A DNA stretch of 57,028 nucleotides, the filler included, from Dugesia japonica (taxonomy: Eukaryota): NCBI GenBank assembly GCA_001938525.1. It is 5 parts of 5 records of this genome, joined end to end, with 100 filler letters (N's around TTAATTAATTAA, not from the genome) between each part and the next. Parts side by side here need not be neighbours in the genome. Positions count along the whole stretch, not along the records: positions 1 to 18,937 come from MQRL01586133.1; 4 more parts are not named here. One strand, given 5' to 3'. Under the pieces are notes generated by a model that ran no database searches, was not told the origin of the DNA, and saw nothing but the letters and a program-made list of their open reading frames with translations. The first letter of the stretch is position 1. Each line of letters starts with the position of its first letter. The position numbers and the translations under genes are program-made. Shown here piece by piece: positions 13,801-56,660 of this stretch.

Positions 13801-16800
13801 ACTTAACAATTTCTTGTGAGTAACACAATATCCTTTTTCGTGATTGTTTAAAGTTCGAGAAACATATGATATGACCTTTTCCAATCAGTTATCCATTATT
13901 TGACTCAAACCCCTCCCCAATTGCTCCAAAGCTAGCATCAGTATCCAATATTATTTCACCCCTATTATTTGGGAAAGTCAAAATCGGAGCACTATACAAT
14001 TTTATCTTCAGAGATTGAAAACTATATTCACATTCTTTTGTCCATTCAATGTTTTTTTCTTGTCCTGTCGTCGTTGCATACTATGATGCTGCAAGTAAAG
14101 CATAATCTTTTATAAAATGCCTGTAATAATTTATTATTCCTAAGAACGCTCGTATTTGCGTGGCACATTTTGGCGTTACGGCTGCTCGAATTCTTTTGAT
14201 AGTTTTATCATTTGTCTCTAAACCTTTAGGGCTAATTGTATGACCTAAAAAATTCAGCTTCTGGGAATTGTACACATATTTATTGGGATTTATTTTTAAA
14301 CCCGCATATTTTAGTAGCTGAAAAACTTTACCAACTCGTTTGTCGTGCTTCTCTTTAGTTTTTCCATTTATTAAAATATCATCCAGATATATTAATACTC
14401 CTTTGTACAACATTCCTTCAAATAATTTATGCATCAAGCTTTTAAATGTTGCTGGCGCAGTACATAATCCGAAAGGCATTCGATTAAAACAAAATTGACC
14501 CATCTTTGTACTAAAAGCCGTCTTCAGTTTTAGTTCTTCACTTAGTTCAATTTGATAATATGCTTGCCCTAAATCTAAAGAAAAAAATAAAACTGATACT
14601 TTAAGCGTATCTAATAATAATTGAATATCTAGAACTAGAAACGAATACTTTTCTGTAATTAAATTCAATTTTCTATAATCAATACACATTCTTATCGTCC
14701 CATCTTTCTTTGGTATAATTTTCAATGGGGAATTTAATGAACTTCTGCGACTTCTAATATTTTTGATTTTCTCAGATTTTCTAACAATTCATCTATTTTA
14801 TTTTATAAAAGCATTATAGACGATATGATTGAAATTATAACTTCATCGGTTCAAGGTAATGATAATAACTAATATTAAGTTCCTGAAGAAGACGATTGTC
14901 AAAAATTTGAACATTTTTACAAATACATTTTATTTTGATCAAATCTTTTTCTTTATTTTAATGAAATCTCAAATGTGGTTAATGGTTAAGTCCAACAATT
15001 ATTCTCACAATAGTCGTAATTATAAAATATTAATTTAAATAATTATTTAATAGTAGATGATGTAGAGAAAATGATGTAGAAATAGTTGAAATAGATGCAA
15101 CATCAGAGGAAGAGATGAACGATATTCAACCAAAAAATGATATTATTGCCGAGAAATTGATTGATGCACAAGCAAATGATGTCAATATTGATGAGGAAAT
15201 AATTGATATACCTCCAAATGATGTCATTTTTGATGAAGTAATACCTGATATGCCTACAAATAATGATATGATGAATAATTAAATGACTGGTTCACAGTCC
15301 GATGTGAAAATACATGATAAAGAAAATACGATGAAGACACATTGATTGCATTTTTACGTGATTAATAAAGAACATGTATGATTTCAATAAATTTTTCTAA
15401 AAATTGTCTTTTGTGTGTGTTATGTTACATAAATATTTCAATTGTAATGCATAGATATCAATAAAATACTACCAAAAATGCATAGAGGTCAATACAAAAC
15501 ACAAATATTACATTAGTGACATTACATTTACATAAAAAATGTTTACAAAATTGCAAAGAAGTCATTTTAAGATGCATAGAAATCCACAATGTTTTTTAAA
15601 TTTCCAAGTATAATATAGGGAAAAACAGCTCAGAAAATACATAGAAGTTATTAAAAATATTTACAAAAATTTCAGATTACATAGATGTCAATACCGATTA
15701 CATAGAAAAGTTTTCAAAATACATAAAGTTAACAGTCATTGCAAATAATTCTCAAACTTCATAGATACCAATACATAAGAATTGTAAGTGTGTGCGTGTG
15801 TTCATAAGTTATAATTAAATACAACAAATTAAAAATTTTTCATAATGATTTTTTAATAATTTTATCCACTTATAATTTTTAAGTAGTTAAATATAACATC
15901 TATATCATATATACATAAATGAAATTTAAAATTTTTCATAATCATTTTAAAATAATTTTATCTACTTATAATTTGTAAGTAGTTAAATATATCATCTGTA
16001 TCATAAATACATCATAAATGAATTTTAAAATTTTTTAAACATTTTAAATAATTTTATCTACTTATAATTTCATTTAAAATTAAAGCTTCGATCAAAATTT
16101 TTGTTATTGATATTGATATTGGATAGCAATTCGATATTTCGACTAAGTCTTCTTCAGGAATTGACTTTTCCTGAAGATAATTCCTGAAGAAGACTTAGTC
16201 GAAATATCGAATTGCTATCAAATATCAATAAAAAAACAAAACTTTTGATCGAAGCTTTTATTTTAAATGAATTCTGTAAAACGATCAATGGTTATGTCCA
16301 ACAATTATTCTCGCAATAATTGCAATTGTAAAATACTTATAATTTGTCAGTAATTAATTTATACATTTTTTTTCAATTAATTTCAAATTTTTAATTAAAA
16401 ATCACGCGATAATTTATCCAATTAAATCGAGTGGGCCACTTTTAAAAAGTAAAAATAATTCTGGTGGATTAAAACAAAATAATCAATTAATTTGGATATA
16501 TTTCAGTACCAAGTCAAAGTTCAGCCCAGTAAGTTTTAATTATTTTCATTGATTAAAACAAAATAATCAATTAATTTATTTATATTTCAGCACCAGGTCA
16601 AAGGTCAAACCCGTACATTTGCACATGGTCCAAAAGTCAATCCACCAAATTTCTAGGCCAGTTCAAAGTTCAGGCCATTGATTTTCGAAGCCACTTTGCC
16701 GGCGGGGGGAGGTTGTCTAGTGCGCAACTATCCCTCTACTCGTACTTACGTAAAACCAATAGTGAGATAACTGTGGCAAATCTTTGAATGAGATCAAAAT

Positions 16801-17639: not shown

Positions 17640-18937
17640 AGTATCGAAACTTCAAAAATGGAATAGAGGACCGGAATAGAGAGTAACTCCATGAAAATTT
17701 TCTTTTAAATATTCTTCTATAGTAATTTTCACAATATTCCTATTTTTACCATTTGATTCATAGTGATATAAATAAAAAAACAAAAAAATCAAAGGGAAAA
17801 TAAAGAAAATAATATATTAAGCGGTGAAATTAGTAAAATAAAATTAAAAACAGAGAATATAAAGAGACAACAAGCTAAAAAACTAAAATCAATTAATGAA
17901 AATAAGTAAAAATATAAACAATTTTTCGTGATTGTGATAAAGAGAAAATATTTAGAAATGAGAATAATAATAACCTGTTAACCAAAACTCCAAATTTCAC
18001 CATGAAGAAAAATGAATTTAATAAAAGAAGTAAAATCAATTAAGCATAAAACGAAAATAGAAAAATAAGCAATATATATCGTGAGAACAGATAAATTATA
18101 TAATCAAAGGACATTAAAAAAGATAGAGAAATATATTAAAAACTGGGGAAAAGATTATTGCCATGTCAAAAAAATCGCTTGTTATAACTATTCAGGAATT
18201 ATTAAAATATAGAAGAAATTTTTTTTTTATATATTTTTGATAAATAAAATAAAAAAATTTTATCTATTACTTAAAAAAGGTTTTCAATATTACCAGTCAA
18301 AACTTAATATATTAAAACAAATTGATATTGCCATTTTGCAATTTTCCATCTATTAATAATTATTTAAACAAATATTCAACGTCCTAAAATATTGAAAATA
18401 CTAAAATATTAAAAAAAAATTGAAAAATCTTTATTTAAAAAATTCAAAAAATATTATAAATTTACAATACAATTTTTTAAAAATATTTATATTTGTATAA
18501 AAAAATAAAATAATTAAAAAATTTTCTTATATTTTCTAATTTAGAAACAGAAATTGAAATTTGCAAATAAAAAATTATCAAAAACTATTAATTTTTACAG
18601 CAAACACAATAATACCAAAAAAATAATTAAAACCTCAAAAGAAACTGTTGAAAAAAAGTAAAATTATGTAAAACTAATAATTGAAGGTTCATCATTGTCA
18701 AAAAACGCAACAATCAATGAAAATAATTAAAATACAATAACCAAACCGCAGTAAACACATTTAGAAAGTGTAAAAAATCGTAATATAAATAATTAATTTG
18801 AAGAAAATGTGTTAACTGATATAATTTTTACAATTACAATTCCTGACGAAGACAAAGTCGAAAATTCGAAATTCTATCAAGAACTAAAAAACATTATGTT
18901 AAAAAAGAAAAACAATATTTTGATCGTAGAGTTTATT
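17640..18937 (+). mobile_element. Highly decayed PLE relic ending in a family-A pseudo-LTR
   Basis: A-rich decayed coding-like sequence (EGSSLS resembles the RT MGSPLS motif) ending in the hammerhead and TTTTGATCG tail. Truncated by the contig end. Confidence 0.45.
18837..18873 (+). ncRNA. Minimal type-I hammerhead ribozyme, family A
   Basis: CAATTC-CTGACGA-A-GAC(AAA)GTC-GAAA-AT-TC-GAAATT. Confidence 0.7.
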
Positions 18938-19037
18938 NNNNNNNNNNNNNNNNNNNNNNNNNNNNNNNNNNNNNNNNNNNNTTAATTAATTAANNNNNNN
19001 NNNNNNNNNNNNNNNNNNNNNNNNNNNNNNNNNNNNN
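18938..19037. other. Artificial contig spacer (44N-TTAATTAATTAA-44N)
   Basis: Exactly 100 bp with a six-frame stop linker, repeated identically four times in the window. Confidence 0.97.
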
Positions 19038-22329: not shown

Positions 22330-23860
22330 TAAAACTCGATGTTTTTCCTTTGGCTGATTTCTTTCAGCAATTTAGACAAAAATCAATTGTTCACAATAGA
22401 CTTGAACCGCTTACTTTCTACCTTGATGACTCTTACTGATCCAATTCAGTTATTGACTGACAAGGACATGTAAACTTTCTTTGATGGTGGGATTAGAGTA
22501 GGTTTTATCTTTGTTAACAAGCATCATGTGGTTTCTGATAAAAACACTGATTTGTTATACATTGATATAAATAATTTATAAAGTTGGGCTTTAAGCCGAA
22601 GCTTCCGTATAAGGATTTTGATTGGGTCTTTTCTGGTTTCGATGACTCATTGAATAATTATTTGAATATAAACTTAGATTCTTTATTTTACAATTGTAAT
22701 TATTGCGAGAATAATTGTCAGACGAACCATTGATCATTTATCAAAATTCATTAAAATAAGAGCTTCAATCAAAATTTGTTTTTTGGTTTTTGGTATTCCG
22801 ACTTTGTCTACTTAAGGAAATGACTTTTTATTCTTTGACTTGGATTTTGAATTGACTTTTTTCTTTATTTTATGGTTATACTTCTGACGTTCCTAAATTC
22901 CTATAAATTACTATTGATTTACATGATTATTTGTTTGATCTTCCCGTTGCTGCTGAACACTAAAGTCCATCTGGATCTACGGTGACAAANTTTTTGATAA
23001 CACATTGTTCATTTGAAATAGTGGCAAATATACTTATAGTTAGGTGTAAGAATTAATAAAGTTTATAGAGCTGTTATTTTTATGCAGGACAATATTTTTA
23101 AGAAAATTTATTGATGATAATACCCAATTAAGAGCACAAAGTAATTCAGATCTTGATGAAAATTATTATAAACTCTTGAATAATATTCTTTATTCGAAAT
23201 CTGTAGAGAATTATAAAAAGAGAATGAATCTCAGACTTTGTAATTCAGCAAAAAAACTTGTAACTTATATGTCAAAAGCAGGGTTTAGGAAATTTATTAT
23301 GATAGATGATGACTTGATTACTGTCTTGCTAAATAAGGAATTGGTTTGGTTAGATAAACCTAATTACATTGGTCAAACAGTGCTTGATATTTCTAAATTA
23401 AGGATGTATCAATTACAGTATATTGAACTTGAGAAATCTAGGAAGGAAGAGAATTGTAAGATCAATATTGTTGCTGGTGATACCGATATCTTTTAAAGTT
23501 CAAGATATCAAATTAGATAAATTATTAAAACTTGTGGTAAGAAATAATCTGCTTGAAACTTCAAATTATTATAAAATACATCCTTTTTATAGTGATGAGT
23601 TGAATTTAGTTGTAGGAAAGGTCTCGAGACCTAAGTGCTAATGTCTTCTTAGAAGAAAAATAGTCGATGAAAGCTAAAGGTGTAATATTGAAATATAATG
23701 GTATTAACAATCCGTAATATCTTAATTGTTATAAAAACAATCAAAAGGTTTCAATGAAAAAATTCAAGATAAGGACTAAAAATCATCAGTTGTTTAGTTT
23801 TAATGATTCCAAGAAAGCACTAACTAACACATATGACATAAGAGTATGAGTAAAAAAGAA
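22330..23860 (+). pseudogene. Polinton/adintovirus-type protein-primed family B DNA polymerase, decayed
   Basis: GGIRVG, LLYIDINNL..WALS..LPYKDFDW, YKLLNNILYSKSVEN, LDKPNYIGQTVLDISKLRMY, AGDTD, KAKGV, in the expected order across frameshifts. Confidence 0.88.
22691..22860 (-). mobile_element. PLE family-A solo pseudo-LTR inserted in polB, hammerhead degenerate
   Basis: Reverse complement of the family-A tail. 12-bp TSD TTCTTTATTTTA (22679-22690, 22861-22872). polB frame (LDSLFYGY) rejoins on removal. Confidence 0.75.
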
Positions 23861-25550: not shown

Positions 25551-27896
25551 TTAAATCAATATTTTTTGTTTGATGAACATTTCGTCTACGATTTCTTTGC
25601 CTAATCTTACACTAGCTAACTTTTTGATGGTTTCAATCATGGTTTTAAATCCATTTTTGTCAGTCGATTGTTTGTTAAATTCATTAAAGAATTCAATGTT
25701 GGAATCCTTATTTTCTAAAAATCTTTCAAAAACCTCTGCCAAAAACTCCCATAGCTTTGGAACATCAGACAATATATCATTAGAAAATTCAAAGATTTCT
25801 TGACAGCCACCTAAAAAAATTTGTTTTGAAAGAATTCTTTCTTGTTTCAGCTTCAGAAAAAAGTCTCCTAATAAGATTCGATTAAAGGTTTTCATTTCTA
25901 ACGTTTTATCAATCAAATCATTTATTATCTTACGAGGATTTGAAATATCTTTCCAACGTTTTGTTGATAATTCACTTTTCATTATTTCACTGAAAATTTC
26001 TTCGGCAATGTTTTCATCAGTTTCACTATTGATTATCACTTTCTCTTTATTAATCTGTTTGTCTTTATCATTATTATAATTTATCTTTATTTCATTTCTG
26101 TTATTACTTTCAAATTTTCCATGATTGTAAGAGGATTTCTCATGTTTGACTATGTCAAAATTATCATTGCTAAAACTGATTTTGTTAAATCTTTCAGCCT
26201 TTGATAAAATAATCTCATCTTCTGTTTCTTTTTTCAATTCATCTAACGTTTTTGGTACAATAGCACTAACGATTTGAACATTACGCAATTTCCAATTGCG
26301 TTTTTTCATATCCAAAATATCTTTCAATGCAAAACGGGTCTTACTGTCTAATTCACTGGAGTTTGATAAAACAAATACTTTATCTAAGCAAAGTGAAATA
26401 TCTTTGCAATATTTCTGTTCTATTTCTTTACCTACTATCTGAATCATATTACACAATGCCTCAAGAGCTTTGGTATCGTTTTGTTGATTAATCAAGCTTT
26501 TTAAACAGTAAATGATAACCTTTCCTGTTATCACTTTTTGTAGATATAACTCCGAAATGAAATGAATATTACCAAAATATCTATCTTTAACCTTTAAAAC
26601 TTGTTCCTCTAAGCCTTCTGCATAAAGAGCTTGTATTCTTTGGTCAGTTTCCAAATTCATTTTTTCCAAACATTTTGACCGAATACTTTCCATTTGAATA
26701 TATAATGATTCCTCAAACATTTCTTTGTTTTTCTTTAATAAGAGACTTTTAAATATTTTATTTTCTTCGCCGATTTCAATAAATTTCGAGGAAAATAATG
26801 AATAGGTTTTCGAGTAAGATTTTCCTAGTACAGCATTAGCAAATACTTGTTCTGTTAAAACTGTCATATCTTCTTCAGATTTGATTTCAAGACCTAAAAT
26901 TTCAGTCAAACATATTTCCAGATTTTCTGGAGCCATTTTATTTAAAATTCTTTTAATATTTTTTTCTAGGATTTTTGTTTGATCTACATCGTTTTCTCTT
27001 AATTTCGGAGGTACATATCCATTTTCATAATGAAGAAGTTTCTTTATTTTACTGCCTCGTTCCCAATTTAATGAAGTTTCTTCTTTCGATTGCAAAGCTT
27101 CTAAATAATCTAAATTATTCACTGCAATGGAAAATATTTCTTGAAACCACGAAGACATAAATGGAACGTCTTTTGGAATAGAATTAAATGAGCTGAACTT
27201 TAACAATTCGCGTCTTGAAATAATAATCTTTGATGGTTTAAAAATTGATGTCGATAAAATGTCTTCAGATAATCTTTCCGGAATGGTTGAATTTTGTTCT
27301 AAAGATTTATTTTCTGTTTGTCCTGATGTTATTTCATCGTCATTCTCAACCATATCTATTTGTTCTGTTGTTATTTCATCGTCATTCTCAACCATATCTN
27401 NNNNNNNNNNNNNNNNNNNNNNNNNNNNNNNNNNNNNNNNNNNNNNNNNNNNNNNNNNNNNNNNNNNNNNNNNNNNNNNNNNNNNNNNNNNNNNNNNNNN
27501 NNNNNNNNNNNNNNNNNNNNNNNNNNNNNNNNNTGTTGTTATTTCATCAACGTTCTCAACATTTTTTGAGAACAAACTTAAATTTCTTCTTTCAGTTACT
27601 AGATTTTCTAAAGTATTTTCATCTAAATTTGTTGTAATAGTTTCATTTTTATTTTCAATTTTCGCATAGTTAATTAAATCAATTTCGACTAATGCGACAG
27701 GATCTATAACCGCTAATGCCTTTCTTTCTCTTTTCTCAGGTCTTTTTACCGGTGTATTCTGAAATGGTGTTAATCCTGGTGGACAAGATGTATTTGGATC
27801 ATTAGGATTAATATAGCAAACCACATAACCAAATTGAGGGTAAAAATTACTTTGATTAAAGATTTGATTATTTTCCATAAAATTTATATCATTCAT
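25551..27896 (-). CDS. eIF4G: Translation initiation factor eIF4G-like protein (PABP-binding motif, MIF4G, MA3; no W2), intronless
   Basis: KRERKALAVIDP matches the metazoan PABP-binding motif. ISRRELLKF sits at the eIF4E-binding position. MIF4G: IKRILNKMAPEN...RYFGNIHFISELY...KTRFALKDILDMKKRNW. MA3-like: DILSDVPKLWEFLAE. An internal N gap lies in a 42-bp repeat. Confidence 0.9.
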   Translation of the reverse strand: MNDINFMENNQIFNQSNFYPQFGYVVCYINPNDPNTSCPPGLTPFQNTPVKRPEKRERKALAVIDPVALVEIDLINYAKIENKNETITTNLDENTLENLVTERRNLSLFSKNVENVDEITTXXXXXXXXXXXXXXXXXXXXXXXXXXXXXXXXXXXXXXXXXXXXXDMVENDDEITTEQIDMVENDDEITSGQTENKSLEQNSTIPERLSEDILSTSIFKPSKIIISRRELLKFSSFNSIPKDVPFMSSWFQEIFSIAVNNLDYLEALQSKEETSLNWERGSKIKKLLHYENGYVPPKLRENDVDQTKILEKNIKRILNKMAPENLEICLTEILGLEIKSEEDMTVLTEQVFANAVLGKSYSKTYSLFSSKFIEIGEENKIFKSLLLKKNKEMFEESLYIQMESIRSKCLEKMNLETDQRIQALYAEGLEEQVLKVKDRYFGNIHFISELYLQKVITGKVIIYCLKSLINQQNDTKALEALCNMIQIVGKEIEQKYCKDISLCLDKVFVLSNSSELDSKTRFALKDILDMKKRNWKLRNVQIVSAIVPKTLDELKKETEDEIILSKAERFNKISFSNDNFDIVKHEKSSYNHGKFESNNRNEIKINYNNDKDKQINKEKVIINSETDENIAEEIFSEIMKSELSTKRWKDISNPRKIINDLIDKTLEMKTFNRILLGDFFLKLKQERILSKQIFLGGCQEIFEFSNDILSDVPKLWEFLAEVFERFLENKDSNIEFFNEFNKQSTDKNGFKTMIETIKKLASVRLGKEIVDEMFIKQKILI
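27327..27562 (-). repeat. 42-bp coding tandem repeat (DMVENDDEITTEQI) within eIF4G
   Basis: Units at 27327 and 27369, and a diverged unit after the gap. The gap is probably a collapsed array. Confidence 0.85.
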
Positions 27897-30188: not shown

Positions 30189-30990
30189 TACCTCATTTGT
30201 TGTTATTTATTTGGGTAAGTGGCTTGCAAATAACGTTTTTGATAGAAAAATTGCTTATCTTATTTATAAAATTTCTTAACTTAATTGAAAGATCCTAGCT
30301 ATAAATTTTGCGACCTTTCCAGAATTCAGTCTTTCTAAACATATCAAAGTTTAAATGAAAATATATCCAAGCCTTGATTAAACTGATTTCGGAAATTACG
30401 GGCACTACATATATAAACCCACTACAGCAGTGTTTCTCAACCGGGGAGATCAAAAGTAAATGCAGAGTTAGTAAGCGATGGTAATCGATGAAAGATTAGT
30501 CTTTATAACTTGTATGCCTCATAAAATAAGAACATCTGAGCATTAATATAACAGAAATTCGGTCAAAAATTACAAACATATGTTTTTTGTTTCACAGTAA
30601 CCTAACTCGACCTTATAAATAGTTGAATACTGCCTAGCAACAGTGGTCGCAAAACTCAATGCCATCCTTCTCTGACATTGTTACTTTTTGGATGTCCTAG
30701 AAGTCCTTGTTAGCTTGCATTTATCAGTGCACCGATTTCTCTTGTCTAAACTTTTCGTCTAAATTGAGTCACGAATTACTAATTTATCTGCTAATTAACC
30801 CATAGAATACAAAAGATACGTAGATGATATTTTCCTTATTTTTAAAGACCAAGATGATATACCACCTTTTCTTGAATATAAGAACAGTTCTCATTAAAAT
30901 ATAAAATTCACTATAGAAGTTGAAAAAGAAGGTAAACTACTATTCTAAGATGTTCTGGTTTGTAGACAGGGTTGCAACTATAATAATTCA

Positions 30991-31645
30991 TAATTACAAT
31001 TATTGTGAGATTAATTGTTGGACTTAACTAATGATCGCATTTGAGATTTCATTAAAATAAAGAAAAAGCTTCNNNNNNNNNNNNNNNNNNNNNNNNNNNN
31101 NNNNNNNNNNNNNNNNNNNNNNNNNNNNNNNNNNNNNNNNNNNNNNNNNNNNNNNNNNNNNNNNNNNNNNNNNNNNNNNNNNNNNNNNNNNNNNNNNNNN
31201 NNNNNNNNNNNNNNNNNNNNNNNNNNNNNNNNNNNNNNNNNNNNNNNNGATTCTTAATAATTAAAATAACTATAACAATTATAACAAAAAAAATTAGAAA
31301 AAAAATTAGAGTTTTAATTTGGTAAAAATTTTAATATTAATAAAATACATATTTCAATATTTTAATACTTAAATACATTAATTAATTTTTTTAAAAAAAC
31401 ATTTAAGAGATTTTCAATTAAATCTAATTAAAAAGAATTTTTGAGATTAAATTTTAAAAAATTATAATTTAAATAGACCAATAAATCTTCGATAAAAGAT
31501 TAATAATTTTGTAGCAAAGATCGATTGTTATTTTGAATACATCAGAAAGTCATCATTCCTGAAGAAAACAAGTGTGTCGAAAATTTGAATTTCTTTACAA
31601 ATTCATTTTATTTTTATCGAAGCTTTTTCTTTATTTCAATGAAAT
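30991..31645. mobile_element. Family-A PLE truncated insertion with inverted ends, nested in the family-C PLE
   Basis: 13-bp TSD CTATAATAATTCA (30978-30990, 31646-31658). Minus pseudo-LTR tail at 30991-31072 and plus pseudo-LTR with hammerhead at 31555-31645. Host RT frame rejoins across it. Confidence 0.8.
31555..31590 (+). ncRNA. Hammerhead motif, family A (helix II weakened)
   Basis: ATTC-CTGAAGA-AAACAAGTGTGTC-GAAA-AT-TT-GAAT. Confidence 0.55.
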
Positions 31646-32383
31646 CTATAATAATTCATTTTTTAATAAACTAACTGGCACAGGACTATATACTACTCTT
31701 AAAAGATTTTTTGATGATCGATATAAAAATGAATCAATAAATGTTTGGTTCATCGAGTGTGGTGTATATCATGATGCTTTGAGATTGCTGATGATGGTCT
31801 TAAAAGATTAAACAGTAGTTTTTGAGCTAGTGAATATAACTGAAAAACTATTGATAATAATATACGGAGTACTCTAAACAAACTGGTTTTAGAATCAAAT
31901 AATAACCAATGCTCACTCGTCAAATATTTTGATTAAAATAAATTTAGATTAATTTTCATTTAAAAAAAATTCAAATTATTTAAGCAAAAAATCCAACACA
32001 CCAAAAGCTTTGCTCGCTAACCTAGTTTATCAATTTAATTTTAACGAGTGTGATGCAACGTACCTTGGAGAGACAAAAAGTCACCTTTGCACACGTACTA
32101 GCGAGCATATACAATTTAGTAGTAAAAGTTCGGTATTTGATCATGCATATTGCTGCAAAAATAGAAAAGGCAAAATAAAAAAAAATTTGATGAGCAGTAG
32201 TTTTGGTAACTATTTTTAAAAAATTGCATGCGAGGCTTTAAGAATTTGGTTGTATAATCCGATTCTTAATAGTCAGATTGACGCACATTAACTTTTAAAT
32301 TTATTAGTATCTTATTTAATTGGATAGATTACGTCACAGGTTTTATTAGACAGTATATAAACAATTTCCTACTTATTTAAACA

Positions 32384-32498: not shown

Positions 32499-32546
<48 letters not shown>
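32498..32546. repeat. (CA)n(TA)n compound microsatellite between two convergent PLE 3' ends
   Basis: Directly visible. Confidence 0.95.
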
Positions 32547-32549
<3 letters not shown>

Positions 32550-32597
32550 TTTAAAATAAAAGCTTCGATCAAAATTTGGTTTTTTGGTTTTGATAAT

Positions 32598-32633
32598 AAT
32601 TCTATATTTCGAATTTGTCTTCGTCAGGAATTG
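32598..32633 (-). ncRNA. Hammerhead motif, family A, at the 3' end of the coding PLE
   Basis: CAATTC-CTGACGA-AGACAAATTC-GAAA-TA-TA-GAATT. Confidence 0.7.
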
Positions 32634-34002
32634 ACTACTTGATTCATTCAATATTTATCTGAACACTAGTAATTTTTTTTAATTTATTTTATTTATTTTT
32701 TATAAATTACATTGTTTTTAGCATTGTCTTCTTTAATTAGTAATTCTTGATGTTTTTTCTATGTAGTGTAGAAATGCAGCCTGTTCCTAGTGTTTTCCAT
32801 GTTATGTGATGTTGTTGTTCTGGTAAAATGTTATGTTTGTGTTGAAAGTGTATGAAGACTTCACTTTTTTGTTTCAAATGTTCCTTAATTCTTGCTGGGA
32901 TTGTTTTGCATGTTTCATCTATTTATGTTTCTTGACAAATGGCGCATGTTATTTTATAAGTGACATTTTTCTTATTGAATATATTTCTACCATCACAAAT
33001 GCATTTGGGTCCACAAAATTTTGTCTTGGTTTCTGTAATTGGATGCCCAAAGAAGCTTACGTTTTGAATATAATTCTAGGATTGCGTTTAGGTCTAGAAT
33101 TGTTTATTATATGTTGCATGATTTGGCTACATTTCTCTTTAATATAAGTTACTTTAATAACTGTGTTTGCTTTTGGTTTTATTTTTTTTTGTTTTGTATT
33201 CAAAGATAAATATTTCGATAAAATTTTATTTGGGTAGCCGTTATTTAAGAATTGGTTTTTTATCAATTTGAGAGAGATCAATTTCATTTCTTCATTTAAA
33301 GATAGTCTCTCAGCTCGAATTCTTTCACCTTTAATTATACCAATTTTNNNNNNNNNNNNAGTATTACTACTCCAAGGTAATATATGTCCACTATGAAATG
33401 GTTTCATATATAATTGGGTAGTTAATATTTCACCAGGTTTCTTTTCGATCAAAGTATCCAGAAAAGGAATGTAAAAGTTAATTGACTTTTCTAGAGTGAT
33501 TTAATGTTATCATTTATACCATTGCCTAATTCTAAAATGTTCTTTAAAGACGAATTAGTCACAAAGAAAACCTCATCTATGTATCTAAAACATATATGAA
33601 TGTTCTTGTCTGATTTAAGAATTATTTGATTTTCAATAAAGTTCGTGAAAATTATCGCTAGAAATGGAGATNNNNNNNNNNNNNNNNNNNNNNNNNNNNN
33701 NNNNNNNNNNNNNNNNNNNNNNNNNNNNNNNNNNNNNNNNNNNNNNNNNNNNNNNNNNNNNNNNNNNNNNNNNNNNNNNNATTATCTCTGGAATATTTGT
33801 ATGTTCTTGGTATCTTTCAAAGAAGTCACTTACAATATCAATGAAATTTTCAGGTCCTTCAATTGGAATTGATTCATACAAATTTGTTACATCTAATGAA
33901 CCAAATTCGTCATTAGCCTTCCAGTCATAATTTTTAATTCATTCGATAAACTCATAACTGTTCTTTAAATATGCCGGAATGAAATGTAATAGTGATTTAA
34001 AT

Positions 34003-35358
34003 GGTTACATGTCAAATCGACACATATTTTTTATAATTTATAATTTTTTAATATTTTTTATTTTTAATAATTTTTACTGGTATAATTTGATTTAATTTTT
34101 GGTATAATTTTTAATAATGTATTTTTTGTATTTTTTGGTATAACGTTTACTGTATTTTTTGTATTTTTCATTTNTAATAATCGACACAAGAATAATTTAG
34201 TATAATTTTAAATAATGTATTGTTTAATTTAATTTGTGTCAGAGCTTGATCAGAAAGATAAATAGTGTTGGTCCCAAAAGTGATTTTGAAACTAACATCG
34301 ACGTTAGATTTAAGTCAAAGTCCTTGGGAGCTTGAGCCTCTGTTCCAATCGATGATGTTAGGAACATGTTTGATCAGCTGGCAACTACATTTCTTGATGA
34401 AAATTATTATATTGATATACTGACTTACTTTTTCTCAACATACATTGAAGGTGCAGCAGGCAGAGATCCTCAGTTTTCAATCAGGGTTTGGAATCATCAC
34501 GAGACATTAACGAAAAGTCACCGAAGACTAAAAGCTGTTACGAGGGCTTCCACAATGTACTCAATTCTTGATTCCACTGCAGTCATACCGGTATTTGGTA
34601 TTGGTTTGATGATCTCAAAAGGACATTTCTTGCCACAGGCTTACTCTAGCCAATGCACAAAAAGTTCGTCAAGAAGTAAAAAAACAGAAATATCATTTTT
34701 CTGCAAGAGACAGTTTCAAACGGTGAGCAGGAATATCAAAAGGAACAGGATAAATTGAAATATTTGAGATTATTAGACAATTCGCAGTAGTAACAAGTTA
34801 AGCTAAACTTTTAATTACTGTATAATGTAATTCAGAGAATAAACTCTTTTCTTTTAGTATTTTCTCTTCAAATTATTTTCATTTTTTCTGTCTTATATTT
34901 TATATTTTAATTTTTTTACTTATTTTAATATATAAGTTATCTGACCTTACATATAATGTGCCAAATTTATAAAATTCATGTGTTAAAATTATTTATAAAT
35001 AAAATTATTTAAAGAAATGTCAATCTGAATTAAAATATAAAAAATACATTATTAAAAGGTTTGCCCTTATGACTTCAACATGCTGCAATATGGAAGTTTA
35101 TTTAAATTTTAAAAAATTATGAAAGAGATAATGAATTACTAAATTATTAAAAATGAAAGATACAAAAATTACTGTAAACATTCTACCAAAAAAATACATT
35201 ATTAAAAATTATACTAAATGACTTATTATAATTACCAGAAAAGGTTATTAAAAATAATAAAAAATATTAAAAAATTATAAATTATAAAAAATGTGTCGAT
35301 TTGTCTGCGTCTATTTGTTTTTGTGTCGATTTGTCATGTTTCGAGTGGTCTGGTCATC
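34003..35358 (+). mobile_element. Mutator-like (MULE) element, internally deleted
   Basis: Long (~200 bp) imperfect TIRs and 9-bp TSD GATTTAAAT/GATTTTAAT. Transposase C-terminal motifs YFFSTYI..PQFSIRVWN..EGFHN at 34300-34790. The PLE RT frame rejoins on removal. Confidence 0.85.
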
Positions 35359-37424
35359 GATTTTAATATATCTACCATAAATTTGCGTAATGCAGTAGAA
35401 GGAGTGTCAGAAGCGTTGACAATAGGTCTTCCGTTCATTGTTGTTTTGTGATCTTTAGGAACACAGTACATCCATGATCAAACTAGTTTATGACATTTAA
35501 CTGTTAACAGTAAAGATTTTGTTGGGTCTTCATATTTTTCTGCTATTTGAATTAATTGTTTGTTGAATTTAATTTCTTCTGTAGTTGGTAGTCTTTGTGG
35601 TCTATTGTTTCAAAATTATTTAAATGTTGAAAGAAATAATTTTAAAAAATAATTTGTTTAAATAAATTATATATAACATAAATTGCATAAGGCAATTTTG
35701 GGAAGAAACTTTCAGAAAGCAAGAAGAATTTGATAGAAGAATTGTTTGTGTTTTAATAAAGTTTTGACTTAAAATTCTTATTTTAATTAAATTAATTGAA
35801 GAAAACAAATAAACCTAACAGTATAGAAGGTCACAAAAATGTGCAGGGTGCAACAAGGAAGAGGGTATGGAAAACTACTTTTTGTCTACGTATGCCATGA
35901 CTATTTTGTTTTGTTTAAACAATGTTGTGATCATTTTGATGAAACGCAAAAGACATTTATTCAAATTTACTTTAATTCTTATTAAATAAATATACATATT
36001 CCATTTAACTTGTTTTATTCATGTAAGTGCAAATATTAGTAATTATGATATTCTTTATCTAAAAACTATATTAAACTAATCGGCAATAACACAGCCATGA
36101 TTTTGAAAGCTTGAAATCATTTGATATTTTCAAATTAGTCATGGAGTTTACACATTATTTGTATTCAATGGCAGATTCATTTCTTATTTAGATATCAATC
36201 CACTACATCAAATATATAAAGATGAATATAGGAATATTATATAATCCAGTCATGTCTCAGAACCGTAAATTCATTAAATTCATATTTCATCCAATTAAAC
36301 TATAGTTATTATTTTACTAATTTGTTGTTTTAATGTTTTGTTGAATTAAGTTTATTTTAAAATACGCTTTTAACTGATTCAGACCGAGACTTCAATGGCA
36401 CTTCAACTGAAAGCCAATTCAAAGATCATCTTTAAAATTGCAATTATAATGAATTCAAAACTTATTGCAACAATAATTTTCTATTAAAGTTTGTATAAAT
36501 GTATGGTTGGTACTGGTAGATATTATAATAAATTTTGATTTGGTTGACAACTTCATATTAAAGTTCCATTAAATTATCCTTATCGAATTTCAGTAAAAAT
36601 GAAAACTCTTAAACCATCATTGTAAATCCACTAGTTGAATTTTCTTTTAAACNAATAAATTTGTCTTAATTATTAGTTGATAATTATTTTTGAAAAGCAA
36701 TTTTCCAGAATTAATTAATGTAGATAATAAAAAACTAAATTCGAGTGAAAAACCTTCAAAACTGGACATCACTTAAATATAATAAAGATGATTTTATAAA
36801 ACTTTGAAATTCATTGTTAACTTTTTTCTGTATAAAATTAAAAGTTCTAAATTTTATTTACTTTTTTTTTATTTATTTAAATATTTTAAAACAAAAAATG
36901 TTTAATAAAAAATAATTTCTAATAAGAAATTATAGAAAATCTTTTTGATTTGCGATTTTTAATTTATTGAAATTTTATAAATGCGATCAACATTTGTAAT
37001 ATAATTATTATTTTTAAATTATTATTTTGAAGGCATTTAAATGAAAATGAATATTTTAATGAGGCTATAAAAAACAACCATGTAAAACACAATTCGATAG
37101 ACAGATCATACACAAACGAAAATCATTTATACATTCACAACAAACATCACAGTTAACAACAACAGTAAAACATTCATTTGTGGACAACCCAATGGCTCAG
37201 CCACCAGATTACAATCCAATCATGTTGCTGTGTTACCACAATCTCACGTGACNNNNNNNNNNNNNNNNNNNNNNNNNNNNNNNNNNNNNNNNNNNNNNNN
37301 NNNNNNNNNNNNNNNNNNNNNNTTTTTTTTATTACTATTTACTTTCAAACTGAAAATGCATTATAACTCTGCGGATACCATTGATATACAAAATTTGGTG
37401 ATGAATATATAGAACACGGTAAAA

Positions 37425-37515
37425 AATTCATAAAATAAAAGCTTCGATCAAATTTTTTTTTATATTTTATTTAGATAAATTCTATATTTTGACTTAGTCT
37501 TCTTAAGGAATTGAC
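37425..37515 (-). mobile_element. PLE family-A solo pseudo-LTR, hammerhead core mutated
   Basis: Reverse strand CAATTC-CTTAAGA-AGACTAAGTC-AAAA-TATA-GAATT...TTTGATCGAAGCTTTT. Confidence 0.7.
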
Positions 37516-37519
37516 AATT

Positions 37520-37729
37520 GACAAAAAAACAGTTTCGGAAGATTTTTAAAAGTTGAGTACGTTATTTATTGGGCAGATTTGATTCTGGAAATTGAATTTT
37601 CCATGAATGCTTCAATTCAAAAAACAACTATAAAGAGTCCAGTTGAAGTGGTTTTTGGTTTTAAAATAAACAAAACAGAATGTCAAAAAACGGATTAAAT
37701 GCAAGATAGAAATGGTATTCACGAAGGAA
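37520..37729 (+). pseudogene. Ty3/gypsy integrase C-terminal fragment
   Basis: WADLILEIEFSMNASIQKTTIKSPVEVVFG. Confidence 0.6.
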
Positions 37730-42114: not shown

Positions 42115-42391
42115 AATTTTAAAATTATTTAGCAATTTACAATTATTTAATTTTTTTTATTTTTAAAATCAAATAACTTCGGTTGTATTATTTCTTATTC
42201 AAATAAATAATTAATAAAACACTGTTTATTGTTTTTTCATTTATTTGCTTTTTGAAAATGGAAATGTAATATAAAATCGAAATGTTATGATACGTAATTG
42301 CTAATTTGTGAAAATTTCATTCGTTCATAACTTTCATTGGTTAATTTATGTTTCTATTTTTAGACCGAAAGTATTGATCTTTTAAGTTAAT

Positions 42392-43321
42392 ATGGCGAAA
42401 AGCAGTGTTTTTCATAAATTGCCAGCGCAGATTTTATTACAGGATTCTAGTGTCACGTTTTCTGGTTATTTAGAAAGAAAAATAACATTACTTTCTTTTA
42501 AGCATTGGATTAAATGTTACGTGGTAATTTCTAATGGAAATATTTACATTTATTCAAGTAATACATCACCAAAACCTAGTGTAGTATGTATTTTGGGAGC
42601 ATTTCATCAAATACAAATAATAAAAAATCGAGTGCAACCACCATTTTGGGCTTTTATTCTTAAACCTCTCATTGAATCTGTGCCTGAATTAAAATTTGCT
42701 GCTGCTTCAGAAAGAGAAATGAATTCGTGGATTTGCGAATTCAAATCTGGAATTATTTTTTCGAAAAACGCTCAACTGAGAAACGATTCTGAAAATTTAA
42801 TTAAGCAGTCTTATAGAGATCCTATGGAAGGAAGTATTTATTCAACAGTATCAGAAAAAAATCAAGTCGTCGATACACTTTTACATTCAGAAAAATCAAA
42901 TATTTATGAAGAACCAGATGAATTATTCTTCAATTCAAATCCTATTATGCCTACTGCTCCTCCATATTATCCAACTTTAAACCAACTTGATAATTTATCA
43001 GTTCAATCAGATATCAGTGATGATTGTGTAGAAAACGCTGTATTTTGTGGTTCACGAGAAGATGCATTTTCAGAATTAACTAAATGTCCTCATCTTGGCT
43101 CATATTTAGTTCGACAAGACAATGGGCGGCAAGTATTAACTGTTAAATGTGAAAGTAATATTGTAAAATATTGTCTAATAATTGAATTAAAAACTAAACG
43201 GATTCATATTGCTGGTCAAAAAGAATCCTTTGAAAATCTTCATCACTTACTCGCATATTATCATGAACATTTTCTACCAAATCAAAATTGCAAATTATTA
43301 ATTCCCTTCAAATTAATTTAA
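42392..43321 (+). CDS. PH + proline/tyrosine linker + SH2 adaptor (SH3BP2-like)
   Basis: PH: SGYLERK..W..CYVVI..FAAASEREMNSW. Linker with YEEP and PTAPPYYP. SH2: SREDA..GSYLVRQ..FENLHHLLAYY. Intact 309-aa ORF. Confidence 0.82.
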   Translation: MAKSSVFHKLPAQILLQDSSVTFSGYLERKITLLSFKHWIKCYVVISNGNIYIYSSNTSPKPSVVCILGAFHQIQIIKNRVQPPFWAFILKPLIESVPELKFAAASEREMNSWICEFKSGIIFSKNAQLRNDSENLIKQSYRDPMEGSIYSTVSEKNQVVDTLLHSEKSNIYEEPDELFFNSNPIMPTAPPYYPTLNQLDNLSVQSDISDDCVENAVFCGSREDAFSELTKCPHLGSYLVRQDNGRQVLTVKCESNIVKYCLIIELKTKRIHIAGQKESFENLHHLLAYYHEHFLPNQNCKLLIPFKLI

Positions 43322-44028: not shown

Positions 44029-45100
44029 ATGAATTTAGAAAATTATGAAACAGTTTCAAGTTGAGTTCTGACTCAACAGAACCCTGCAGGCTTCCAAAAA
44101 GCCGTTCAAAGTAAAGTAACAGGATTTCTGCTATAGACAAAGAACGGATTATAAAAGCTTATTAAGAGGGTAGAGATTTGAAATCTGTCAGCTAAATTCT
44201 AAATGTAAATTTCGGCTCTTTAAGAAATATTATCTCTAAGTAAAATTTAAATTATTTTATTTAAAATAAATCAAAAATCATATTTTAGATATAACAGAAC
44301 GAGCTCAATTTCCAAAGGAAAGTATGGTGGACACAAATAAAACATTAATGAAGAAATCGGGAACAATTATTAGACGAAATCGATTTTAAAAAACCTATAT
44401 GACCTTAGAATAAATGAAACCACTTTCCAAGAAAAAGGTCTGGATACTTCAAAAACAACAATATTGACCCGAAGAACAGATTTTATACGATCAAGAAGTT
44501 GCGATATTCTGTTGAAAAAAATTCTGATAGAGTAAAAAATCTACGAGAAGAATATGTGGAAATATATTTCGAAGACAAAATACGGCCAAGTCAATGCATA
44601 TATATATAGACGAGACCTTTTGCAGTGAGTGGACCCAACGATTAAGAGGAAGGAGTTTCGGTGGCGAAAATGCCTATATTCAAGTACCAAATCAGCGACG
44701 CCGGAATATTTCCATCATAATGGCAATTGAAAACAAAGGTCCAATTTATCATTCAGTTCATCAAGGTGCTCTACATGAAATTTATTCATGAATTATCGTT
44801 AAAATTAGATGCCAGTGAATATTACTTCATTCACGATAACGAATCTATCCACAACAATGCCCTAACAACAACAGAAAACCACAAAGTCCTGCATCTACCA
44901 CCATACAGTCCTTTCCCGAACCCAATAGAAAATTATTTTTCCCACTTCAAATCAAAACTAAGGAAAATTTTGACCAACAATTTAGATTTGGACTCAAGTT
45001 CCAAATCTAATCAGATTAAGTCTGCCATTTTTCAACTAGTTGAAGAGGACAAAAATAATTGTCTAAAATTTTATTACAATAACATTAAATATTTTTTCCC
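44029..45100 (+). pseudogene. IS630/Tc1-family (DDE_3) transposase, decayed
   Basis: IYIDET, NISIIMAI, FIHDNESIH, LPPYSPFPNPIENYFS. N-terminal HTH-like region with a probable short intron at ~44240-44289. Confidence 0.85.
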
Positions 45101-45659
45101 GAAAAAAAATTTTTATTTATTCTTCTCTTATTTAATATCTAAAATTTTTCATATAAATATACTTTATTACAAGAATTTTAACTTATTAATTATTAAAAAC
45201 CATTAAAAATTAGTTTACATAAAAAAATTAAAAAATACAGAAATTTTTAATAATAATGTTGAGGAAAGCTCATAAATAATATACTAACTTATCCATATAT
45301 ACACATATAAAACAAACACACAAGCTCATTCGACTCAATATCAATACAGCTGCTCAAATCAAACAATGGATTTGATAATTCAAATCAATCTGCGATTCAA
45401 TAATTCAAGTCAATTTAACTTTTGTTATGATCCAGTTATTGATCTGACTGATAAAATTGATATTAATCTGACTTTTTACTAATTTTCAAATTTTTTATGT
45501 TATTTTTATTTTTAATTTATTGTATGATGTATAATCTGACTTTTTGTTTTATTGCTATTTTTAATTTATTTCATGATTTTAATTATACGTACAAATTTTA
45601 TTATTTACAAATTTTGATTATAAACAAATTCGGAATATTATTGATTAATTTTATCGAAA

Positions 45660-46448: not shown

Positions 46449-46980
46449 TTCTTCGAATAACTCGACTTCAGAAAGTCACCGGGACTCGTAGCAAGAAAAT
46501 TTGAATCGGGATTGGTATGGGGCAACAAAATTCCTTAATCCAAAACGTTGCGACCACCAGAAGGACCGTCACAAGGATTGGAAGATGGAACCAATGAGAA
46601 CCTAGAAAATAAAAATATAACAAATGTTGGGTTGCTAGGCTTTTGATGTTATTCAAGGAAAGCTGCACTAAAATTATACACGAGTTTCAATAATGTTACC
46701 ATCGTCGAGTGGTGTTAATACTTGCTGTAAGATAGCTTCGACTTTTCCAGAGAGTNNNNNNNNNNNNNNNNNNNNNNNNNNNNNNNNNNNNNNNNNNNNN
46801 NNNNNTTCTTCAAATAACTCGACTCCAGAAAGTCACCGGGACTCGTAGCAAGAAAATTTGAATCGGGATTGGTATGGGGAACAAAATTCCTTCATCCAAA
46901 AACGTTGCGACCACCAGAAGGACCATCACAAGGGTTGGAAGATGGAACCAATGAGAACCTAGAAAAACAAAATATAACAA
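46449..46980. repeat. Diverged ~175-bp direct repeat pair (46449-46622 and 46806-46980)
   Basis: Two similar but non-identical copies either side of a small gap. Identity of the parent element is unknown. Confidence 0.75.
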
Positions 46981-47260
46981 AGAACAAAAACTCACATGAT
47001 AATCCAAAAATAACGGCCAACGGAATTGCAGAAAAGTCTGCAAAATTCCAGAAAAGTGGCATCAACGCCAATAGAATCGTGCTATTTTGAATTAAAAATA
47101 GCTGGTTAATGCTAAGCAAGTCGGGGTGTCTCGGAAACCCTATAAAAGGTCCCCATGTCTTAGCAGAAAGACAACATAAAAAACATCACAACAAATTTAA
47201 TCGAGTATTTTCATCAACTACAACGAGAGAAATATTTCACCGGATTATTTGTACTTGCTA

Positions 47261-56409: not shown

Positions 56410-56660
56410 GAAATATGTTTTAGTCATGATAAATCGATACAGCAAATTTGCCATTGTGTCAAAAATCTTTAGTTGAATCAACGAAAGATAATTAGATAAA
56501 TGGATTTGGTAAACCGAAATCCATACCGACAGATAAAGCCAAGATATTTGATGAAATGGATGACACAGAAATTTGGAATTACACACGAATTTTTGTCTCC
56601 ATACCAACATCAATCAAACAGTTTCGCAGAAAAACGACCAGGACTCTACGACATATAAAA
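56410..56660 (+). pseudogene. Ty3/gypsy integrase core fragment
   Basis: Homologous to 12780-13030 (YVLVMI.RYSK, FGKPKSI.TDKAKIF, SPYQHQSN.FAE). Confidence 0.7.

Follow-up and report, generated by a model that had tools for sequence, protein, structure and literature searches.

The window, the whole 57,028-nucleotide stretch of Dugesia japonica DNA analysed here, filler included, has a GC content of ~25% and its genes are eukaryotic. At 16059–16345 we found a 263-bp insert (16071–16333) between two copies of a 12-bp target-site duplication (TSD), and its sequence assigns this unit, as a single copy, to a Penelope-like (PLE) family of very high abundance; elsewhere in the window lie about ten additional copies (~12 pieces in 57 kb). 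An uninterrupted 781-aa frame at 25551–27896 (−), with an N gap inside it, encodes MIF4G and MA3 domains and is eIF4G-like, representing a single-exon gene or a retrocopy, and an uninterrupted 311-aa frame at 42386–43321 (+) encodes PH and SH2 domains. Remnants of an LTR-retrotransposon-type pol (RVT_1 and RT_RNaseH) occupy 13449–14788 (−), and a DDE_3 transposase remnant is found at 44721–45206 (+). Near-identical duplications flanking N gaps, and paired gaps of fixed length on either side of a 12-bp linker, are present at 4162–4747, 46449–46981 and 18938–19037 and look like assembly artefacts.

Target site and layout of the unit

The two TSD copies are identical 12-mers at 16059–16070 and 16334–16345. 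The left copy closes 2.5 units of a host 96-bp tandem repeat (15826–16070), the third unit of which is interrupted by the insert and resumes at 16346, and a third site of the 12-mer, at 15963, lies within an uninterrupted unit of the same repeat, which we took as a model of the empty site. Measured against this model, 22 of the 24 bases from 16334 match 15963–15986, and past the right TSD 14 of 21 bases match the repeat, a level reached by 109 of the 110,650 21-mers of the window; farther on, the right flank departs from the repeat more than the left flank does. Since the host repeat resumes at the right flank, the 12-mer reflects genuine duplication of one target, and the perfect 12-bp TSD described in an earlier note on this DNA is confirmed. 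Another copy of the 96-bp repeat, at approximately 11402–11566, contains a different insertion, whose short terminal inverted repeats begin with CCCT and whose flanks are TTAA, and which we take to resemble a piggyBac-type MITE.

Three parts make up the insert: a minus-strand left arm (16071–16169), a 9-bp centre (16170–16178) and a plus-strand right arm (16179–16333). The left arm is an inverted piece of the pseudo-LTR (pLTR) whose 5′ end, 16169, is the family's common 5′ boundary and whose 3′ end is the shorter of two family 3′ sites, and the right arm is a sense pLTR piece that continues through a 64-bp tail lying between the two 3′ sites (16270–16333) and terminates at the family's major 3′ site. 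Each arm contains a minimal type I hammerhead, at 16128–16162 (−), where minus-strand cleavage is predicted 3′ of 16133, and at 16179–16213 (+), where cleavage is predicted 3′ of 16208. The arms are identical at 86 of 92 alignment columns, the innermost 41 being without mismatch, and to this extent the unit is palindromic, as had been claimed, but it is also lopsided, with the tail on the right side only. The earlier note's 'no coding sequence' does not hold: a PLE ORF N-terminus is encoded from 16282, and 16282–16338 reads as PLE ORF residues 2–20, with 15 of 19 residues identical to those of the protein P0001. Apart from these first codons, the unit itself has no RT/GIY-YIG ORF.

The 10-nt centre piece 16168–16177 is an exact repeat of 16181–16190, the first 2 nt of the re-copy being common to the left-arm end, and it is this piece that had been seen as a partial third core between the ribozymes. 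Chance would produce such a re-copy with a probability of ~3e-4, counted for the 8 nt not common to the left arm. We considered whether the right arm is full length and the centre merely has two point changes, and set this reading aside given the exact 10-nt match. At the outer junctions, each arm meets one TSD copy with 2–4 nt of microhomology. The unit is, in sum, two overlapping pLTR pieces (hammerhead, linker and ORF start) placed head to head within a 12-bp TSD.

The Penelope-like family, its ends and its junctions

P0001 is an 843-aa protein with RVT_1 and GIY-YIG domains, the latter at 21.6 bits, slightly below the cut-off of 22.6. Its linker contains Cys, it has a CxxC within the GIY-YIG core, and its DKT motif and CxCx5C linker are as described for Hydra; because of the Cys linker, we class P0001, on its predicted protein features, as not of the Penelope/Poseidon type. 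A decayed autonomous PLE, in which remnants of RT and GIY-YIG precede the same hammerhead pLTR, is found at 32545–34025 (−), in five pieces with 68–74% identity to P0001; its ORF pieces span 32702–34025, and its pLTR, at 32545–32636 (−), stops at the short 3′ site within a (TA)n run. Among the 12 proteins scanned with Pfam, two decayed PLE ORF pieces gave no domain, and the homolog search identified both. Other P0001-matching remnants are located at 2160–2372, 30814–30969 and 35355–35597, the last of which may be the upstream part of the decayed PLE, split off by an insertion.

A second head-to-head pair, at 18822–18937 (+), joins a ~16-nt inverted tail stub to a sense copy starting at the hammerhead, its right end falling in an N gap; its junction differs from that of the 16059–16345 unit. 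A single-orientation copy at 22684–22860 (−) is bounded by a 12-bp TSD of its own, and its 5′ end is stuttered; the TSD scan found nothing clear at 3/4 other copies scanned. The 12-bp TSD of the unit, set in AT-rich DNA, accords with the variable-length TSDs of EN+ PLE insertions. Stuttered 5′ ends, consisting of re-copied 7–14-nt pieces, are seen in the single-orientation copies at 22684–22860 (−) and 37425–37522 (−), and the family seems prone to templated inserts at the 5′ junction.

The readable 3′ ends of the other window copies (n = 10) fall equally on two sites. Five coincide with the end of the right arm, at the long site (copies near 1446, 15029, 22684 and 30976 and the inverted stub at 18822), and five are at the short site, within ~7 nt of the left-arm stop (copies near 6299, 31647, 32545 and 37425 and a 26-bp fragment at 56652); one extra 3′ end falls in an N gap. 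At the other end, six of the nine hammerhead-bearing copies, the two arms included, start within ~15 nt of the core, one of them with a stuttered leader, and three reach upstream.

Four of 24 listed public runs were compared at a likeness of 90; the kind of X1 is not on record, and X2 is probably DNA, possibly the window's own source. Contigs on the stretch number 28,964 (X1) and 27,839 (X2) and are concentrated on the arms, and their summed depth, which is no copy number and serves as a contrast only, peaks over the tail at 3.7 (X1) and 4.0 (X2) million versus 12–24 in the unique flank. Heterogeneous loose ends pile up at 16333–16335 (460 contigs in X1, 468 in X2), and the right end is therefore the family's major 3′ end; the short 3′ site, absent from the loose ends listed for the DNA runs, is read from the window copies. 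Of 173 joints, 15 are listed, and 13 of these have 16168/16169 on one side; the other side takes 11 different positions from 16211 to 16297, and in 12 of the 13 it is within 40 nt of the short site. Many listed head-to-head joints carry short inserts, and none of the 15 is an empty-site allele. Head-to-head pairs are common in the family, with one arm at the fixed 5′ boundary and the partner variably truncated. These junctions were read as short contig pieces, with a short side of 22–28 letters, and perfect palindromes break de Bruijn contigs, a bias against finding twins of the unit. Heterogeneous loose ends at 16169 are also present in 72 reads of the RNA run X22, and the boundary is therefore not merely an artefact of the reference.

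At 16177, summed depth is 87 (X1) and 100 (X2), or 340 and 242 when contig ends are counted, versus ~120,000 at 16162. The family letter contributes 65 and 68 to this depth and the window's letter 22 and 32, about the level of the unique flank, and each DNA run contains one strand-switching contig, at depths of 22 and 18. Within the limits of short contigs, the centre of the unit is near single copy and its junction is unique. A search for copies of the same central junction with different TSDs had been suggested as a check; the other head-to-head pairs turned out to have varied junctions. The right TSD junction is spanned by one X2 contig, which covers 16311–16500 with 1 difference, and no contig among those listed for X1 and X2 spans the whole unit. 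Two letters with <2% of family depth (upper bounds) are common to both arms, at the mirrored sites 16126/16215 and 16145/16196; the arms were therefore copied from a single template or from closely related ones, or became alike through later homogenisation.

Hammerheads, hairpin and RNA

All core nucleotides are present in both hammerheads, with CUGA cores at 16157 (−) and 16184 (+), and both are minimal, with a 3-bp stem II and a 4-nt palindrome that replaces stem III. The cores were located by a pattern search and their features were then compared with PMC4209133; Rfam at the gathering score gave no match over the whole window, its top hammerhead model scoring 20.8 bits against a cut-off of 56.3. 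Fourteen weak Rfam matches in 15900–16500 were rejected, being mainly miRNA hairpin models that match the palindrome, and a 19-nt motif scan returned 16 metagenome loci and 1 viral locus by chance, none of the 17 sharing more than ~20 bases with the element. Across eight family copies, stem pairing is kept in 58 of 64 stem cells, and stem covariation in these copies is not above that of shuffles (39 of 500). The copies at 6067–6299, 14879–15029, 30976–31071 and 31410–31647 form a second subfamily with a longer hammerhead loop II and, in two copies, a compensatory stem I change, and one more hammerhead-like core, at 7090–7133 (−), has a longer stem II and perhaps belongs to another PLE family.

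A hairpin in the transcript of either strand, as the earlier note had proposed, is predicted at −130.9 kcal/mol (z −19.9), with equal stability in 0 of 200 shuffles and with imperfect pairing that extends nearly up to the centre. In each arm alone, stems I and II are predicted to form with a fold fraction of 0.33–0.41, and forcing them, that is, the ribozyme fold, costs 44–51 kcal/mol in either read-through strand. A lone duplex of the 4-nt stem III palindrome is not stable, at a predicted +1.6 kcal/mol, and the dimer action of minimal hammerheads is taken from the literature (PMC4209133). Because the antisense arm is transcribed first on either strand and refolding is costly, these models make the ribozymes passengers, and their action in the present copy is unlikely; the description of an 'intact' hammerhead on each strand stands for the complete cores and for the sequence only.

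Both RNA libraries are mRNA-type cDNA, blind to small RNA, mostly blind to circular RNA and poor for hairpins. X22 contributes 1,475 reads and X21 42, of which 97% and 100%, respectively, continue into unlike sequence and therefore derive from other copies inside other transcripts. The both-strand or circular RNA that might come from the unit finds little here: no read of the mRNA-type X22 library crosses 16177 away from read ends (11 when ends are counted), a weak result for libraries of this kind, and no go-back joint is among the listed RNA joints of these libraries, which are unsuited to circles. Read-end pile-ups are likewise absent from the two mRNA-type runs, a type of data that cannot test cleavage.

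Origin of the head-to-head unit

The earlier note had offered as one reading a retrozyme-like, non-autonomous unit carrying ribozymes of both polarities, which would spread as a unit via its own RNA. The perfect TSD, the complete cores on opposite strands and the strong hairpin are in keeping with it, and X22 contains family RNA reads in both orientations, although the strandedness of the library is not on record. Active non-LTR retrozymes are defined by tandem same-sense ribozymes (bioRxiv 10.64898/2026.07.22.740005), and none are found in the unit. The unit resembles them in being short, non-autonomous, derived from a PLE pLTR and equipped with a type I hammerhead, but it is not a same-sense tandem, it releases no monomer and its junction is unamplified. 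With a single hammerhead per strand a monomer cannot be excised, the antisense arm precedes the ribozyme in either read-through strand, and both ribozymes are trapped in the hairpin at the folding cost given above. Moreover, the near single-copy centre, with its one strand-switch contig per DNA run, and the varied junctions of other pairs show, in short-contig data, no amplification of the unit as such, nearly all X22 reads leave the element for unlike sequence, and X22 depth in the flank is 0–2.4 with no start or end pile-ups. We regard this reading as unsupported and highly improbable.

Two independent insertions that came to lie head to head by chance, or an artefact of assembly, would be an extremely improbable source of the pair. 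The density of the family, the 6 of 92 columns at which the arms differ and the absence of a listed contig covering the whole unit could be held in favour of one or the other, but a single TSD brackets both arms, the host repeat resumes beyond it with no second TSD, the arms have rare letters in common and the head-to-head geometry recurs in many contigs from two DNA runs; an artefact, for its part, would yield identical arms. Self-priming, in which one cDNA (or an antisense RNA, as for Adineta PLEs) folds back and serves as the template for the inverted arm, with later trimming of the centre, would account for the rare letters common to the arms and for the identity of the inner 41 nt, imperfect pairing extends almost to the centre, and palindromic inverted junctions have been so interpreted (PMC3846280). 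The left arm nevertheless has 7 nt of family 5′ sequence (16163–16169) that are missing from the right arm, the partner in other pairs starts 3′ of the hammerhead (16211–16297) and cannot template a hammerhead-bearing arm, and the left arm's outer end is the 3′ end used by single-orientation copies. We consider self-priming unlikely, and of the fold-back or template-jump integration first suggested for this unit, PLE integration stands and simple fold-back, given the 7 nt of the left arm, fits poorly.

That the unit is a PLE head-to-head by-product is very probable in our judgement, and the proposal of a PLE-integration snapshot with an inverted, truncated pseudo-LTR is supported and can now be tied to the P0001 family. 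Probably the unit is a single dead insertion by an endonuclease-bearing PLE in which both nicks primed; the both-nick step, considered by itself, is somewhat favoured. It draws on the outer ends, since each arm stops at a different one of the two family 3′ sites and abuts one copy of the TSD, on the 7 nt found in the left arm alone, on the hammerhead-less partners in other pairs and on the rare letters common to both arms. The GIY-YIG endonuclease would cut both strands, 12 bp apart, in the AT-rich host repeat, and each free 3′ end would prime RT on pLTR RNA, at the major site ~55 nt into the ORF to give the right arm and its tail and at a site 64 nt upstream to give the left arm without a tail. 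Both cDNAs would grow in the direction of the 5′ end of the RNA, which lies a short way upstream of the hammerhead, and microhomology would serve to end-join them, one aborted first annealing leaving the 8–10-nt 'third core'. With one RNA this would be twin priming and with two sibling RNAs dual priming. The tail-side cDNA would usually stop early in pairs, and in this unit it would have run ~90 nt further, which would be why a hammerhead is present in both arms.

In a study of PLE activity in vitro (PMC11167929), the PLE protein acts on both target strands, cutting and extending each, and initiates on RNA at two sites bounding the tail; it is modelled as a dimer, and ribozyme cleavage is dispensable. 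RT initiation in that system proceeds without homology between the start site and the cut DNA, and the microhomologies seen here may therefore be chance in AT-rich DNA. Classical twin priming leads to an internal deletion (PMC2837659), and since the arms overlap by ~91 nt with no deletion, strand displacement or a second RNA would be needed. The rare letters common to the arms could also stem from post-insertion arm-to-arm conversion. The 64-bp tail exceeds the usual 30–40 bp and counts against priming from both nicks as the best explanation. More tentatively, and on balance less likely than not, most transposition of the family may go through a short RNA whose 5′ end is fixed ~13 nt ahead of the hammerhead core; both-nick priming at the two RT start sites would then produce pairs routinely, and the template may be a pair of RNAs kept together by a dimer-dependent hammerhead and a dimeric RT.

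The arrangement has close counterparts. An inverted truncated pLTR with a one-sided tail is standard for PLEs (PMC8557442, PMC3846280), and first ORF codons lie within the pLTR/tail in Adineta Pen2a (PMC3846280) and Anolis PAc (PMC11167929). Adineta Pen2a and other EN+ PLEs (PMC3846280; scheme in PMC8557442) share with the unit a head-to-head inverted pLTR, a TSD around the whole unit, a tail on one side only, first ORF codons in the pLTR/tail and a pLTR hammerhead. They differ in that the present unit has no element body, only two pLTR pieces, in that its tail is 64 bp and theirs 30–40, and in that its junction is a re-copied insert and theirs an overlap or palindrome. The minimal hammerheads of metazoan PLEs (PMC4209133) are alike in their type I core, the extra base after position 9, the G10.1–C11.1 pair and a palindromic helix III remnant, implying dimer action. 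In Schistosoma mansoni, dual hammerhead motifs on opposite strands lie about 100–700 bp apart (PMC4209133), whereas the cores of the unit are just 26 nt apart, and helix II has 3 bp in the unit and 7–8 bp in the published hammerheads. LINE-1 twin or dual priming (PMC2837659) resembles the unit in the TSD around oppositely oriented pieces primed from two nicks and in filler at the inner junction; the unit, in contrast, has no poly(A), two fixed internal RNA priming sites and arms that overlap with no deletion. We found no paper that applies twin or dual priming to PLE inversions, in a search to which older subscription papers on PLE structure were external.

The unit is a known PLE by-product and ordinary PLE debris, and both inverted pLTRs and opposite-strand hammerhead pairs have already been published. 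Ribozymes on both strands of a genomic palindrome are, as a caution, not evidence of viroid-like RNA. The value of the unit is that it preserves, in little space, both ends of a single PLE integration. The origin of PLE inverted pLTRs and tails is described as undefined (PMC8557442), and the published explanation that we found is self-priming on an antisense template (PMC3846280). The locus and its relatives' joints fit both-nick priming and link it to the two-strand, two-start extension reported in vitro (PMC11167929). If true, both-nick priming would explain the inverted repeats and the one-sided tail of PLEs without antisense self-priming, and the very high copy number of the family would make this reading testable from one genome assembly, the family-wide junction pattern being a test of how PLEs form inverted repeats.
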